From the sequence record MH051917: a DNA stretch of 64,000 nt. One strand, 5' to 3'. A program made the translations under genes and the position numbers. Source of the DNA: Enterobacteria phage vB_EcoM_IME341. The notes beneath the pieces are model-generated. The model had not been told where the DNA came from. It made no database searches and saw nothing but the letters and a program-made list of their open reading frames with translations. Of the stretch, positions 57,729-62,651 are shown in pieces (within the stretch, counting starts at the first letter, position 1; every line of letters begins with the position of its first letter).

Positions 57729-57736
57729 TATTTATA
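57729..57736 (-). promoter_or_regulatory. late promoter TATAAATA for the 51-27-28-29-48-54 operon
   Basis: plus tatttata 57729-57736, about 22 nt upstream of gp51 ATG. Confidence 0.6.
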
Positions 57737-57740
57737 AATA
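57733..57740 (+). promoter_or_regulatory. late promoter TATAAATA for genes 26-25 (overlaps the divergent one)
   Basis: tataaata 57733-57740, about 19 nt upstream of gp26 ATG. Confidence 0.6.
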
Positions 57741-57758
57741 AGCTTAAAGGAGAAGACA

Positions 57759-58382
57759 ATGAATTATACTTTTGACGTAAAAATTAAAAACAAAACCATA
57801 AAATGCAGAGCATTTACCCTCAGAGAGTATAAGGACTTGCTCCAAGCTAAATTAGAAGGCAGAATAGAGTCCTTTATCAATGAACTCATTTCGAATTGCA
57901 CAGATGCTCGTGATTTAAACAAGCAAGAATCTGAGCTCCTGGTGATAAACCTGTGGGCCCATTCATTAGCTGAAGTGAATATAGAACGTGAGTGGGTTTG
58001 TAGTTGTGGGCGCTCACAGGTTGTCCCTATGACACTAACTCGCGCAACATTAGGTAAAGAGCCTGATGTTATTAAAGACTTTGGCAACTTTAAAATTGTT
58101 TTCAGATACCCTAAACTCTTTGAAGATAAAAATAGGGCTATGATGGTCGCAGGATGTATCGATTATATTTTAACTTCTACAGGCGAAAAGCTTTTTCTTT
58201 CAGATTTAAGCGATGCGGAACTTGATGACCTTTATTCTGTGATAACAGAAAAAGATATAAAAGAAGTTTATGATGCACTAGTTGCCCCTAAGCCTATTTT
58301 GGCCATACCTATTTCTTGTGAATGTGGTGAACATACTGTCCACGTTATTGAGGGACTTAAAGAGTTCTTTAAGGTGATGTAA
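57759..58382 (+). CDS. 26: gp26 baseplate hub subunit
   Basis: 207 aa (T4 208); synteny. Confidence 0.75.
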   Translation: MNYTFDVKIKNKTIKCRAFTLREYKDLLQAKLEGRIESFINELISNCTDARDLNKQESELLVINLWAHSLAEVNIEREWVCSCGRSQVVPMTLTRATLGKEPDVIKDFGNFKIVFRYPKLFEDKNRAMMVAGCIDYILTSTGEKLFLSDLSDAELDDLYSVITEKDIKEVYDALVAPKPILAIPISCECGEHTVHVIEGLKEFFKVM

Positions 58383-58771
58383 TGAATATCAATAAAATGT
58401 ATTCGGATTTAGACCCTGAAATGAGGACGTCTTGGAATAGAGACGTTGCTAAAGCTATAGGGGCCCGTGCAGTAAAAAATAGCTTGTTAGGCATTATTAC
58501 TACTCGCAAAGGTTCACGCCCTTTTATGCCTGAATTTGGTTGTGACATCAGCAACCAATTGTTTGAGAATATTACTCCATTAATCACAGACACCATTAAG
58601 CGTAATATAGTTTCCGCTGTGCGGAACTTCGAACCCAGAATTTCTGCCCTGGCTGTAGGCGTTACACCTGTGTATGATGACAACTCTATTATAGTGACGG
58701 TCCAGTTTAGTATCGTTGATGACCCGGATACATTAGAGCAAATTAGAATTCAGCTCTCCCAGAGTGGTTAA
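58382..58771 (+). CDS. 25: gp25 baseplate wedge subunit
   Basis: 129 aa (T4 132); synteny. Confidence 0.75.
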   Translation: MNINKMYSDLDPEMRTSWNRDVAKAIGARAVKNSLLGIITTRKGSRPFMPEFGCDISNQLFENITPLITDTIKRNIVSAVRNFEPRISALAVGVTPVYDDNSIIVTVQFSIVDDPDTLEQIRIQLSQSG

Positions 58772-58798
58772 TTGCTGTTCAAATGAATAGTGTATAAT
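58771..58798 (+). promoter_or_regulatory. promoter upstream of uvsY (MotA-box-like plus TATAAT)
   Basis: aTTGCTgTT box 58771-58779, 13-nt gap, TATAAT 58793-58798; box has two mismatches. Confidence 0.35.
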
Positions 58799-58829
58799 GG
58801 TCCTATGGTTATTACACAGGAAACATGCG

Positions 58830-59267
58830 ATGAGTAAAGAGATTGAATATAAATTAGAGTCATTCCAAGATGCTTTGGATGAAGATTTGAAGATTGATGG
58901 GACTCGTTTACAGTATGAAGTACAGAACAACGTTTTGCTGCACAGCAAATGGCTAAGACTGTATACGAATTGTAAGAAAGAAATAATGAGATTAGAAATC
59001 CAGAAAAAGACCTCACTTAAGAAGCGATTAGATTTCTACACGGGACGTGGAGAGCCTGGTGATGAGGTTTGTATGGACCAATATGAGAAGTCTGAATTAA
59101 AGACCGTAATGGCTGCAGATTCTAGTGTAATTAAAATCGATACGTCAATCCAGTATTGGGCTTTATTACAGGACTTCTGTAGTTCGGCTTTAGACGCAGT
59201 CAAAGCCAGAGGTTTCTCATTAAAGAATATGTTGGAGCTCAGGAAATTTGAAGCAGGTGAAAAATAA
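58830..59267 (+). CDS. uvsY: UvsY recombination mediator
   Basis: LQYE..NNV.L.SKWL; RLD.Y.GRG; M..YEKSE.KTV..AD..V.K.DTS.QYW..L.DFCS.ALDA.K.RGF match recalled T4 UvsY; start moved to ATG 58830. Confidence 0.85.
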   Translation: MSKEIEYKLESFQDALDEDLKIDGTRLQYEVQNNVLLHSKWLRLYTNCKKEIMRLEIQKKTSLKKRLDFYTGRGEPGDEVCMDQYEKSELKTVMAADSSVIKIDTSIQYWALLQDFCSSALDAVKARGFSLKNMLELRKFEAGEK

Positions 59268-59946
59268 AAAGTACCATATGTGCTACCAAACTTTAGTATA
59301 CTCGCCTAACGGAACTAGGCGATATTTTGGTAAGCATTCTTCTGATAAAATATCTGACAAGTATGTAGGGTCTGGTAATTACATCTATTATGCAAAAAGA
59401 TTAAAATACCGAATTGAAATAGTCGATAGGACTTTTTTCGATACCGAACAACTTGCTTATGAATTCGAAGAGCTTTTGATAGAAGAGGCTTGGGATAAGT
59501 TTGGTAAAGGTATTCGCTGTATGAATATGAAACCTGGTGGTGAAGGAGGTAGTTGTACTACTCGTTCTCCTGAATCTATTGAAAAGAGTGCGTCGAAAAT
59601 ACGAGGTATTCCAAGGTCTGAATCCACCAAACAAGCCATAAGTGCGGGTCATAAAAGAAATCCATATTCTCATACAGAAGAAGCTAAAAAAGCTATGTCA
59701 TTAGCCAAATTAGGTAAGAAACGTACCAAAGAGGCTAATGAGGCCCATATAGGTAAACATTCACAGCCTAAGCTTTCTATGAGAAGTAAATTATGGGAAT
59801 TTGAAAAGGAAATCCGTGAACTTTGGATAAAGGAAGGAATGCCTAAAAGAAGGAAATTTCAACGCATAATAGTTGAGAATGGATTTCCTGATTTAGATGT
59901 AGGTTATATGGTTAAAACATTTGAAAAGAATTTGGCTAATAAATAG
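59268..59946 (+). mobile_element. free-standing homing-endonuclease gene inserted between uvsY and uvsW
   Basis: Seg-like ORF in an intergenic slot that carries no such gene in the T4 order as recalled. Confidence 0.4.
59278..59946 (+). CDS. Seg-like GIY-YIG homing endonuclease with NUMOD3-type DNA-binding repeats
   Basis: N-terminal CYQTLVYSPNGTRRYFGKH..KYVGSG (GIY-YIG-like); repeated RSESTKQAIS / HTEEAKKAMS elements; start uncertain (track starts at TTG 59248). Confidence 0.5.
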   Translation: MCYQTLVYSPNGTRRYFGKHSSDKISDKYVGSGNYIYYAKRLKYRIEIVDRTFFDTEQLAYEFEELLIEEAWDKFGKGIRCMNMKPGGEGGSCTTRSPESIEKSASKIRGIPRSESTKQAISAGHKRNPYSHTEEAKKAMSLAKLGKKRTKEANEAHIGKHSQPKLSMRSKLWEFEKEIRELWIKEGMPKRRKFQRIIVENGFPDLDVGYMVKTFEKNLANK

Positions 59947-59974
59947 ATATGTAAGTTAAACTAAGGAGACAATC

Positions 59975-60142
59975 ATGTCAGATAAGATTTGCGTTGTCTG
60001 TAAAACTCCAATCGATGCTGCATTGGTTGTTGAAACAGAAAAAGGTCCGGTTCACCCGGGTCCATGCTATAATTACGTTCAAAGCTTGCCGGTTACGGAA
60101 AACACTGAAGAACAGCTGAACGAAACCCAATTATTAATTTAG
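59975..60142 (+). CDS. small Cys-containing protein (55 aa)
   Basis: strong SD taaggagac; CVVCK...GPCYNY suggests a zinc-ribbon-like pair; below track cutoff. Confidence 0.35.
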   Translation: MSDKICVVCKTPIDAALVVETEKGPVHPGPCYNYVQSLPVTENTEEQLNETQLLI

Positions 60143-60172
60143 TCTAGTGTGTATAGCCATTTTATGGTTATT

Positions 60173-60200
60173 GGCCCTTCCGAAAGGTTGGGCCTTTTTT
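60173..60200 (+). terminator. rho-independent terminator between convergent genes
   Basis: ggccc...gggcc hairpin with GAAA inner loop followed by T6. Confidence 0.65.
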
Positions 60201-60202
60201 GT

Positions 60203-60430
60203 TTAGAAATCTTCCTCTTCCTCGTCGTCCATCGACTCCAATTCAGCTCTCTTACCAGCCAATGCATCGCGTACGCTGATATCATCCGAATCACGAAGTT
60301 CGGCTTCCTTACTACGAGTTTTGTAATACTTCTCTAATTCCTCCAGACCTTCCATGGTCTGACACGAACTAATTTTAGACATGAAGCTTTCAATAGATGC
60401 TTCCTGAATAACTTCTTTAAAGGTTTTCAT
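60203..60430 (-). CDS. uvsW.1: UvsW.1 (C-terminal accessory protein of UvsW helicase)
   Basis: 75 aa acidic protein immediately downstream of uvsW (T4 UvsW.1 about 76 aa). Confidence 0.7.
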   Translation of the reverse strand: MKTFKEVIQEASIESFMSKISSCQTMEGLEELEKYYKTRSKEAELRDSDDISVRDALAGKRAELESMDDEEEEDF

Positions 60431-61923
60431 AAATCCACCTGTTTCATTACGTAATTAAATTTCTCATCAGCATAACGTTGAATACGTTCTAAAGCGTGTT
60501 TGAGGGCGTAGTTCAAATGAACATATTTCTTTTTAGCCGTAGCTGATTTAGGCTTAACACCCATGTCGTCGATGATATCCCATACTTGTGCTGTTGATTT
60601 AGAAGCATGTTTACGGAGCACACGACCGATTGTCTGGAGTACAATGATTTTGGATTTTACTGGGTGAGCAAATACAACGTGGTGAAGGTTCTTAACGGAA
60701 ATACCAGTAGAGAACACACCATAACTTGCCACAACAATAATACCCTTACCATTTTCCGCCATTACTTTCAGAGCATTACGCGTTTCGGTATTAACTTCAC
60801 CTGATACGTAATAAACTTCTTTATGTTGCTCTTTAACCATTTCAAAAAGAGTTTTACCGTGTTCGATGTTTTTAAACATCAGGAATACGTTCTCTTCTTT
60901 CTTAGCGAGTTTAACAGCTAAATTAGCAACCCATTTATTACGACGAGTAGCCTTAGTAATGACTTTAATTTCTGATTGGTAATCTTTACCTTTCATCTTA
61001 ACAGTGAATTCGTCTGGGTATCGAAGGAAAATACTGTTGATTTTAAGGTCTGTAACCTGTCCTTCTTCCATTAACTGTGAGGTGGATACCGGCTTAAACA
61101 CATCACCAAACAAACCCATATATTGCATTAAATTAGCTTTACCATCTTTTAAAGAACCAGACAAACCAAATTTAAACATACAGTTGGTTAGGCCTTCGAT
61201 GATAGTAGAAATTGATTTACCTGTAGCCAAATGGCATTCATCGTTCATAAACATACCAAACTGAGCAAACCATTCTTTAGGTTGCTTGATAGCTGTTTGG
61301 TAAGTTGAAACATAAATCATTGCATCCGAATCACGGGCAGTACCTGAACGAATTCCAAGCATTGCGGCTTTAGGGAACAACCGATAATCGATGAAGTCAT
61401 TAATCATCTGGTCAACGAGTGCAGTAGTAGGAACTAAGATAAGAATTTTACCTTCATAGTTCTCAACGTAATATCGACTCAGGAGCGCCTGGATTAATGA
61501 TTTACCTGCGGATGTAGGTAAATTCAGAATTGCGCGACGTTTTGTCAGACCGTTGTATACGGCTTCATTCTGATACCAATGGGGCTCAATCTTGGTAGAC
61601 CCTGAATAAATTTCTTGAGAAGCCACCCATGAATCAAAATCTTCACGTGAAATATCTTCCTGTTCAAGAATACGTGGGTCAATCCACAGAGAGTATTCAA
61701 ATTGTTCAGCGAATTTTTTAATCTGCGGAACCAATCCATAAGGAAGTTTACGGTTATAATCCAGAAGACGAATACGACCATCCCATTGCCCATAACGAAA
61801 TTTAGGGTTGAATTTATATCCATCAGCTTCAAAGCTAAAATAGTCTCTGAGTTCGTAGAATGTGGATTCATCACACTCAATACGAACATGACTAAAATTA
61901 TCGAAATGTACTTGAATTTGCAT
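60427..61923 (-). CDS. uvsW: UvsW DNA/RNA helicase
   Basis: 498 aa; VHF..FSHVRI.C.ESTF.ELRD.FSFEADGY.FNP.FRYG.WDGRIRLLDYNR and helicase motifs (NLPTSAGKS, DECH) match recalled T4 UvsW. Confidence 0.95.
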   Translation of the reverse strand: MQIQVHFDNFSHVRIECDESTFYELRDYFSFEADGYKFNPKFRYGQWDGRIRLLDYNRKLPYGLVPQIKKFAEQFEYSLWIDPRILEQEDISREDFDSWVASQEIYSGSTKIEPHWYQNEAVYNGLTKRRAILNLPTSAGKSLIQALLSRYYVENYEGKILILVPTTALVDQMINDFIDYRLFPKAAMLGIRSGTARDSDAMIYVSTYQTAIKQPKEWFAQFGMFMNDECHLATGKSISTIIEGLTNCMFKFGLSGSLKDGKANLMQYMGLFGDVFKPVSTSQLMEEGQVTDLKINSIFLRYPDEFTVKMKGKDYQSEIKVITKATRRNKWVANLAVKLAKKEENVFLMFKNIEHGKTLFEMVKEQHKEVYYVSGEVNTETRNALKVMAENGKGIIVVASYGVFSTGISVKNLHHVVFAHPVKSKIIVLQTIGRVLRKHASKSTAQVWDIIDDMGVKPKSATAKKKYVHLNYALKHALERIQRYADEKFNYVMKQVDL

Positions 61924-61937
61924 AAGTAATTCTCAGT

Positions 61938-61945
61938 TATAAATA
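61938..61945 (+). promoter_or_regulatory. late promoter TATAAATA upstream of inh
   Basis: tataaata 61938-61945, about 29 nt upstream of ATG 61974. Confidence 0.55.
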
Positions 61946-61951
61946 TAGTTA

Positions 61952-61959
61952 TATTTATA
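61952..61959 (-). promoter_or_regulatory. late promoter TATAAATA upstream of uvsW
   Basis: plus tatttata 61952-61959, about 29 nt upstream of uvsW ATG. Confidence 0.55.
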
Positions 61960-61973
61960 CACTAGAAAAGAGA

Positions 61974-62651
61974 ATGATTATGGACCACCAATATATTGAA
62001 GAGCTTCGTGCACTCGAAGATAAAAAAGAAGCTAAAGCTAAGTTAATCGAATACGGCGAACAGTTCGGTTTAAAACTTAAGAAAACCCGTTCGTTTGATA
62101 ATTTGATTATCGATATCACTGAAGGTCTTAAAGCCCTGGCCGACGAACCACTTCCAGAAACCGAAGGTTTGTCCATTTCTGATTTGATTGATGCTGCTGA
62201 CGAACTTACAGGTTCTAATGAATTTATTGATGGAGCCGAACCTGCTAAAGAAGAAGCAACCCTGTTGTTCGATGCCCCTGAGGCTGTAGTTGAAGTCGTT
62301 GAGGTAGTCGAACTTCCTAAGGTAGAGGTTATTGAAGAGGATGTTCCGTTTGACGAAGAGAAATTCAAAGAGGCTGTAGACAAGGTTGTTGAATTGGAAA
62401 AACCTGTATTCTCTTTACCTGAAAACTTCAGCCCTAATCTTTTGCTTATTGGTAAAAACCCTGGTTACTGTACTGTTCCTTGGTGGATTTATCAATGGAT
62501 TTCTGAGACTCCGGATTGGAAAGAACGTCCGACTGCTTTCCAACATCCTACTGCACACCAAACACTATTCAGCTTGATTTATTACATCAATCGTAATGGG
62601 TCTGTTCTAATACGAGAAACTCGTAACTCATCTTTTGTCACTTTAAAATAA
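61974..62651 (+). CDS. inh: putative Inh (inhibitor of prohead protease)
   Basis: 225 aa between uvsW and hoc, as T4 inh (226 aa); synteny and size only. Confidence 0.45.
   Translation: MIMDHQYIEELRALEDKKEAKAKLIEYGEQFGLKLKKTRSFDNLIIDITEGLKALADEPLPETEGLSISDLIDAADELTGSNEFIDGAEPAKEEATLLFDAPEAVVEVVEVVELPKVEVIEEDVPFDEEKFKEAVDKVVELEKPVFSLPENFSPNLLLIGKNPGYCTVPWWIYQWISETPDWKERPTAFQHPTAHQTLFSLIYYINRNGSVLIRETRNSSFVTLK

Follow-up and report, generated by a model that had tools for sequence, protein, structure and literature searches.

A probable free-standing Seg-type homing endonuclease gene between uvsY and uvsY.-2 in a JS98-like T-even phage

The protein encoded directly downstream of uvsY in Enterobacteria phage vB_EcoM_IME341 is probably a genuine free-standing Seg-type GIY-YIG homing endonuclease, and by analogy with the T4 enzymes it is predicted to be active. 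Its gene lies on the plus strand at positions 59257..59946 (stop codon TAG at 59944-59946) of the 64,000-nucleotide stretch of sequence record MH051917 that was analysed, hereafter referred to as the window. We put the probability at about 80% that the product combines three modules, namely a GIY-YIG domain, a NUMOD3-like linker and a helix-turn-helix domain, and spreads by homing in the manner proposed below. The gene can already be found, uncharacterised, in public genomes and represents a new member of the known Seg class at a site, uvsY|uvsY.-2, that is not among the characterised T4 seg loci. Since free-standing GIY-YIG endonucleases of T-even phages are already textbook material, it leaves existing concepts unchanged.

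Gene order, start codon and expression

The window belongs to a JS98-like T-even phage of the genus Dhakavirus, with positions 58382-61923 sharing 98.6% identity with Escherichia phage IME08 and 92-97% with other Dhakaviruses. Pfam and PHROG matches support a gene order that begins with gene 25 (58382-58771) and uvsY (58830-59267, plus strand; Pfam UvsY E 5e-53), whose homologues begin MSKEIEYK. The endonuclease gene is followed by uvsY.-2, a 55-aa CxxC open reading frame (ORF) on the plus strand (59975-60142; Pfam DUF2685 E 9.5e-29), then by uvsW.1 (60203-60430) and uvsW (60427-61923) on the minus strand, and by inh (61974-62651). Terminator-like tandem hairpins and a subsequent U-run (60153-60200, plus strand; MFE -21.2 kcal/mol, z -3.47) are placed between the convergent uvsY.-2 and uvsW.1. 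The order in T4 is inh-segE-uvsW-uvsY.-2-uvsY.-1-uvsY-25, in agreement with the earlier statement that T4 segE sits on the other side of uvsW; in the window inh adjoins uvsW directly and segE is absent there. The same comparison contradicts the statement that T4 has no gene at the position of the endonuclease ORF, as T4 carries uvsY.-1 (74 aa), the occupant of its uvsY/uvsY.-2 slot, and then uvsY.-2.

The original prediction let the ORF fill the whole interval from uvsY to uvsW.1 and noted a 55-aa CxxC peptide and a terminator downstream of it. The neighbours were named correctly and both downstream features are there, but neither belongs to the element. The flank with uvsY.-2 and the terminator is nearly identical in relatives without the endonuclease gene, and the two features are parts of the backbone that lie outside the mobile element. 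Because uvsY.-2 is conserved in these relatives, the endonuclease ORF occupies the uvsY-uvsY.-2 slot only.

On the plus strand an open frame runs from 59248 to 59946 and, as had been described, carries the GIY-YIG-like segment CYQTLVYSPNGTRRYFGKH...YVGSG and the NUMOD3-like strings RSESTKQAIS and HTEEAKKAMS. It contains two in-frame starts, an ATG at 59278 that would give 222 aa and a GTG at 59257 that would give 229 aa. The GTG is probably the start of the gene, which would then overlap the end of uvsY. This choice is favoured because the GTG start adds (V)KNKKYH and with it the His of the family consensus H-x-[V/I/C]-Y-x-T, because the GTG, the Shine-Dalgarno-like motif AGGAAA 9 nt upstream and the 11-nt uvsY overlap are all kept in a 72%-identical orthologue (L018), and because it is used both by gene callers for the 91%- and 72%-identical proteins (P0001 and P0002) and in the IME281 GenBank entry, where the 229-aa form is annotated as a 'putative endonuclease'. 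The seg genes of T4 begin with AUG, in contrast to the probable GTG overlapping uvsY in the window, and the T4 seg and mob genes typically have initiation regions that are weak or unusual (PMC2988022). A GTG start with an 11-nt overlap of the uvsY stop would hold expression low.

No T4 late promoter (TATAAATA) was found within 57740-61938, and a sigma-70 scan upstream of the ORF returned nothing exceeding shuffle expectation. The endonuclease gene probably has no promoter of its own and is read through from uvsY or further upstream transcripts, so that we infer its expression from this arrangement; translational coupling to uvsY is the simplest reading. The flanking host gene uvsY is thus the probable source of both transcription and translational coupling for the endonuclease. 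Other alleles retain a terminator-like hairpin that lies within the ORF, at its 5' end (59302-59322); since the codons it occupies are strongly conserved and compensatory changes are absent, we do not put it forward as a regulatory element.

Family membership, motifs and fold

Given that the protein itself falls below the GIY-YIG and NUMOD3 thresholds, its family membership rests on its homologues and its fold. It matches PHROG 314 'homing endonuclease' at E 3e-17, aligns with T4 SegE across the first 119 aa at 34% identity (pairwise E 1e-11), and has 1607 homologues at E <= 1e-3 in an exhaustive HMMER search. The ORF protein gave no match to Pfam PF01541 or PF19835 or to NCBIfam TIGR01453 at E <= 1, and Pfam NUMOD3 reached E 0.08 over residues 137-155 (13.3 bits against a cut-off of 20.4). 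Even T4 SegE, which scores above the cut-off for PF19835, remains at 21.6 bits against a cut-off of 22.6 for PF01541 and below the cut-off for TIGR01453. The proposed search for GIY-YIG and NUMOD3 profiles was therefore unsuccessful for the protein alone, yet successful for many of its homologues. In a family alignment of 64 sequences (60 library homologues, T4 SegE, the KIT01 and VPA32 proteins, and the window protein), NUMOD3 was matched by 44/64, SegE_GIY-YIG by 17/64 and GIY-YIG by 14/64, with a best NUMOD3 E of 1e-28 among the aligned sequences. The missing GIY-YIG match is a sensitivity limit of the models and not a defining biological feature. Together with the identity to T4 SegE and the existence of relatives with empty sites, the homologue matches bear out the assignment as a Seg-like GIY-YIG free-standing homing endonuclease. 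A word-indexed homology search retrieved two close relatives only, and searches of PDB sequences with either the single protein or the 64-sequence profile returned nothing relevant.

Residue numbers below refer to the 229-aa form, in which Y10 corresponds to Y3 counted from the ATG. The GIY-YIG catalytic domain (59257..59556, plus strand) spans approximately residues 1-100, with the key residues Y10 (the Tyr of GIY), Y23-F-G25 (YIG), K26-H27, D34, Y36, G38-S-G40, E71, N90 and G94-G95. Across alignments of 64 and 119 sequences the columns of Y10, G25, G38, E71 and N90 are invariant, while those of Y23, H27, D34, Y36, S39, G40, G94 and G95, as well as K26, are near-invariant; Y23 is conserved at 90% or more, and the window protein agrees with every column that is invariant or conserved to that degree. 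The first motif had been called degenerate on account of its C-Y-Q, a description that does not hold. Locally it reads H-M-C-Y-Q-T, which equals the family consensus H-x-[VIC]-Y-x-T; the Tyr is invariant in 64/64 and 119/119 aligned sequences, T4 SegE reads F-V-Y at this motif, and the Cys recurs in other members (HYCYLT, HFCYKT).

The catalytic domain is followed by a linker made of roughly four helical, NUMOD3-like repeats with the pattern S-x-E-x-x-K-x-x-S-x(3-4)-G (59566..59766, plus strand) and by a putative C-terminal helix-turn-helix DNA-binding domain of homeodomain/Myb-like type (59779..59940, plus strand), which consists of three helices and is common to the KIT01 and VPA32 endonucleases. 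AlphaFold with the 119-sequence alignment gave a confident model (pLDDT 90.4), in which a beta-beta-alpha-beta-alpha N-terminal domain, i.e., the alpha/beta GIY-YIG fold, precedes four short linker helices and a C-terminal helical bundle. The linker helices cover residues 105-115, 122-134, 141-151 and 158-169, and the S-x-E-x-x-K...S...G pattern falls on all four. The model obtained from a 3-sequence alignment was unusable (pLDDT 51).

As a lead on the catalytic residues, hhalign aligned the family profile with I-TevI, using a sequence that we take to be UniProt P13299, at a probability of 95% and E 3e-8. Y10, Y23, E71 and N90 were paired with I-TevI Y6, Y17, E75 and N90, and Y23-F-G25 with Y17-V-G19. 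The I-TevI segment D23-H31, which includes R27 and H31, remained unpaired, and this R27/H31 helix segment has no aligned counterpart in the window protein. The Seg-type alignment contains no invariant Arg, and T4 SegE shares the layout at the R27 position. The missing R27 equivalent is a trait of the whole Seg subfamily, including enzymes shown to be active, and K26 and H27 might act as its stand-ins. The two proteins also differ in that I-TevI is encoded in the T4 td intron whereas the window gene is free-standing, in a sequence identity of only ~17-18%, and in that a zinc finger is not evident in the window linker.

The closer likeness is to SegE and SegA-G of T4, with which the window protein shares a 'YIGKHS...D-x-Y-x-GSG ... 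E ... C/Y-x-N-x-x-x-GG-x-GG' nuclease domain and a modular architecture of nuclease and DNA-binding parts. Like the window gene, the T4 seg genes stand free between conserved genes, are patchily distributed and have a weak translation initiation region. T4 segE is found in the same neighbourhood, between inh and uvsW, but at another insertion site than uvsY|uvsY.-2, and its product aligns over the N-terminal 119 residues only, the C-terminal domain of the window protein being different. Full-length homologues with 31-35% identity are KIT01_193 of Escherichia phage KIT01 and orf204 of Klebsiella phage VPA32, which share the H-x-C-Y-x-T motif and the C-terminal W...LW...P...F...G[FY]P helix-turn-helix domain. 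Their genes also flank uvsY, but between gene 25 and uvsY, and at 195-197 aa the proteins have fewer linker repeats.

The occupied slot and the diverged uvsY end

DNA of the endonuclease gene was found in 5 of 50,697 phage records, which represent the three phages IME08, IME281 and FB. All have it at the same site, with amino-acid identities to the window protein of 99.5-100% for IME281 (accession AWD91099.1) and IME08 and of 91% for FB, and the three ORFs are the same gene with no difference of substance. The gene is not present at this site in all relatives: the uninterrupted JS98-type junction occurs in at least 36 database records, including at least 12 aligned Dhakaviruses (the junction alignment covered 16 genomes), and the element is rare, occurring in about 3 of several dozen Dhakaviruses. 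Such rarity could reflect a recent invasion, but weak drive or resistant targets would explain it equally well.

At the empty sites, a small ORF of 32-36 aa begins with an ATG that overlaps the uvsY stop; it exists in three unrelated or partly related versions of 32, 34 and 36 aa. A comparison of the small ORF with T4 uvsY.-1 gave no similarity, which rules out that the two are the same gene and indicates that the slot carries unrelated genes across genera. On the left, homology with the empty-site alleles fades at 59266..59277, where ATGAGACGTACTAAA, containing the small-ORF ATG, reads ATAAAAAGTACCATA; this change converts the uvsY stop from TGA to TAA, and the substitutions at 59266 and 59275 are unique to the endonuclease-carrying genomes. 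On the right, the endonuclease gene and each of the three small-ORF versions share TAATAAATAG (59937..59946), such that every slot allele ends in ...NK-stop, directly upstream of the uvsY.-2 ribosome-binding site. Because the alleles have this end in common, the slot behaves as a cassette with fixed borders. Apparent endonuclease-specific columns at 59749-59813 were discarded as an alignment artefact, the small ORF having been forced against the endonuclease gene.

The event, as read from these borders, is a replacement of the small ORF and not a clean insertion into intergenic DNA. The idea of an insertion beside uvsY is thus supported by the empty-site alleles in relatives, but needs to be amended in its form. 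The 72%-identical orthologue on metagenomic T-even contigs (L018) also sits between uvsY and uvsY.-2, at precisely this position, within a backbone that is only ~74-78% identical to Dhakavirus and Kanagawavirus. In Kanagawavirus PEi20, a relative of the L018 phage, the site is empty, uvsY and uvsY.-2 being separated by 32 bp. Occupation of a single position in distant backbones, each of which also has empty alleles, is the classical hallmark of homing.

The last 78 nt of uvsY (59190..59267, plus strand) form a strongly diverged tract adjoining the element. Between the window and JS98 this tract is 58-67% identical, compared with 90-98% for the rest of uvsY. Mismatches over the last ~78-130 nt of uvsY amount to 22-28/64 against JS98-type genomes and 6/64 against KIT01 and UP19, while elsewhere they number ~0-7/64 and to the right of the element 0-2 per 64 nt in all genomes. 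The JS98-type uvsY end is nearer to those of PEi20 and T4, and therefore appears ancestral, with the end found in the carriers being derived. The derived end is also present in KIT01, UP19 and UGJNEcP3, none of which has the gene at this site and each of which has another endonuclease gene nearby; the tract is thus not strictly linked to the endonuclease gene. It may be the footprint of co-conversion, a target allele that resists cleavage, or a combination of the two. An origin of the diverged end from an L018-like donor is unsupported, as the identity to L018 is 63% for the window and 65% for JS98.

Within 3.5 kb, the uvsY region of Dhakaviruses accommodates at least three endonuclease genes (at 25|uvsY, uvsY|uvsY.-2 and uvsW|uvsW.1) as well as the three small-ORF alleles. 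A tentative proposal, which we regard as possible but rather doubtful, is that two related endonucleases, whose C-terminal helix-turn-helix domains are of one type, both use uvsY as their homing target, the present enzyme from downstream and the KIT01/VPA32 type from upstream, and that the 78-nt end is a resistant allele that circulates independently. If so, elements with a shared target would drive allele turnover in uvsY, a core recombination gene, and the slot between the uvsY stop and TAATAAATAG would act as a general site of cassette exchange. The product of uvsY is a recombination mediator that homing itself requires, and in T4 the gene adjoins oriF.

Proposed homing and the alternatives

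The mechanism we propose is drawn by analogy with SegA, SegB, SegC, SegE, SegF and SegG. In a mixed infection, the enzyme would bind a rival genome that lacks the gene, via its C-terminal domain and repeats, and would cut it near the locus, most likely at the small-ORF junction or in the 3'-terminal part of uvsY, which makes 59190-59277 and the small-ORF allele the candidate target region. Repair would then proceed by T4-type recombination-dependent replication with the endonuclease-carrying genome as the template, and the repair would transfer the endonuclease gene and adjacent markers to the recipient, resulting in intronless homing, co-conversion and marker exclusion. The carrier genome would be spared, its copy of the site being disrupted, replaced or diverged. 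Seg enzymes of T4 likewise cut the gene adjacent to their own insertion, leading to co-conversion and marker exclusion (PMC2988022). If the enzyme is active, the uvsY/uvsY.-2 region would become one of the few Seg homing sites to have been characterised, and its activity would account for local mosaicism and for marker bias in crosses of JS98-like therapeutic coliphages.

The gene is under strong purifying selection, as indicated by a dN/dS between alleles of 0.05-0.16 at a dS of 0.39 against FB and ~2.7 (saturated) against the metagenomic orthologue. Such selection proves usefulness and not cutting, and would also be expected of a domesticated, catalytically silent Seg descendant kept as a sequence-specific DNA-binding protein, such as a repressor or a modulator of the nearby uvsY/oriF-type region. 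The well-conserved putative DNA-binding domain at the C-terminus, the missing counterpart of I-TevI R27, the infrequency of the element among relatives and the fact that I-TevI also acts as an autorepressor (PMC2988022) are all compatible with a silent protein. We nevertheless consider it unlikely, given that the protein retains every family-invariant nuclease residue, among them the Glu and Asn paired with I-TevI E75 and N90, and that the missing R27 equivalent is common to the whole Seg subfamily. Moreover, patchy occurrence confined to a single site across two distant backbones is what mobility predicts, rather than what would be expected of a housekeeping regulator. More improbable still, in our estimation, is that the protein is an active nuclease whose main selected role is not its own spread but phage-phage competition or evasion of host defence, for example through the degradation or exclusion of co-infecting genomes or by stimulating recombination and amplification locally. 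The uvsY locus, with its several endonuclease genes and small-ORF alleles, has the character of a recombination hot spot, and two studies describe SegB as promoting amplification of anti-defence loci (PMC13096335) and nuclease genes as boundary markers for genetic exchange in other phages (PMC10055350). The element itself carries no anti-defence or accessory cargo, however, the replaced unit being the endonuclease gene alone, and a role of this kind is in any case compatible with homing, since the biochemical mechanism would be the same.

Against homing by a functional gene one could also hold a chance open frame or the remnant of a decaying pseudogene, as the protein has no direct Pfam domain match and its gene is unannotated in both the GenBank and the RefSeq record of IME08 and in FB is given as a hypothetical protein of truncated length. 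This explanation is refuted for practical purposes by the 1607 homologues, by the confident fold and by a frame that is intact across all alleles despite synonymous divergence as high as the dS of ~2.7, at which the low dN/dS is still maintained. The omission in IME08, the truncation in FB and the misses of the Pfam and NCBIfam GIY-YIG models indicate instead that the Seg subfamily is under-annotated.

Alternative cassettes between uvsY and uvsY.-2

In Dhakaviruses, the slot between uvsY and uvsY.-2 holds at least four alternative cassettes, which are either the endonuclease gene or small ORFs of 32, 34 and 36 aa (related phage regions L002:2383-2481, L011:1383-1493 and L004:2383-2487). All of them share the same borders, which lie at 59266-59277 (left) and 59937-59946 (right) in the window: on the left, the uvsY stop overlaps the start codon of the cassette, and on the right, TAATAAATAG is common to all, with every product ending in NK at its C-terminus. 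None of the slot cassettes showed any likeness to uvsY.-1 of T4.

IME08 carries the endonuclease gene (L001:2386-3091) in a form that matches the window ORF with 100% identity, but both records of that phage (HM071924 and NC_014260) leave it unannotated. In phage FB (L007:2636-3169), the annotation comprises only a truncated 177-aa 'hypothetical protein'.

Endonuclease genes from gene 25 to uvsW

The 3.5 kb that run from gene 25 to uvsW form a hot spot where endonuclease genes have inserted independently. Seg-like paralogues of the window gene were found between gene 25 and uvsY in one Dhakavirus and one Karamvirus (KIT01, L003:1949-2542, and VPA32, L006:2489-3076), so that related endonuclease genes flank uvsY in different phages. 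At 31-35% identity to the window endonuclease, these proteins share with it an N-terminal H-x-C-Y-x-T motif and the same kind of C-terminal helix-turn-helix domain; their insertion point is on the opposite side of uvsY. In KIT01, divergence is raised at the 5' end of uvsY next to the paralogue, with 15 mismatches in 64 positions in the 58830 bin of the flank alignment.

The interval between uvsW and uvsW.1 carries a third, unrelated type in UGJNEcP3, an HNH endonuclease gene (L004:2967-3749; Pfam E 6e-6). ORFs also occur at this site in PSD2002 and UP19 (L016:1964-2659 and L017:1963-2658), that of UP19 having an existing annotation as 'homing endonuclease'.

Hairpin, promoters and the start of uvsY

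A terminator scan detected a GC-rich 7-bp hairpin followed by TATTTTGG at 59302-59329, within the 5'-terminal part of the endonuclease gene. It is kept in FB and in the metagenomic T-even contig L018, but the codons that it occupies are highly conserved (SPNGTRRYFG), and no compensatory changes were seen in it.

Homologues of uvsY begin at the ATG at 58830, so the 156-aa model in the ORF list, which starts from the ATG at 58797, is probably overextended at its N-terminus. Upstream of uvsY (58770-58800), TTGCTGTTCA precedes TATAAT by approximately 20 nt, an arrangement that, judged by sequence, resembles a T4 MotA-dependent middle promoter. The uvsY promoter region of T4 is also the replication origin oriF (annotation in NC_000866). 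Late-promoter motifs (TATAAATA) lie back-to-back on opposite strands at 57729-57740 and 61938-61959, in the divergent intergenic regions 51/26 and uvsW/inh, and this pairing is typical T4-type late transcription architecture.
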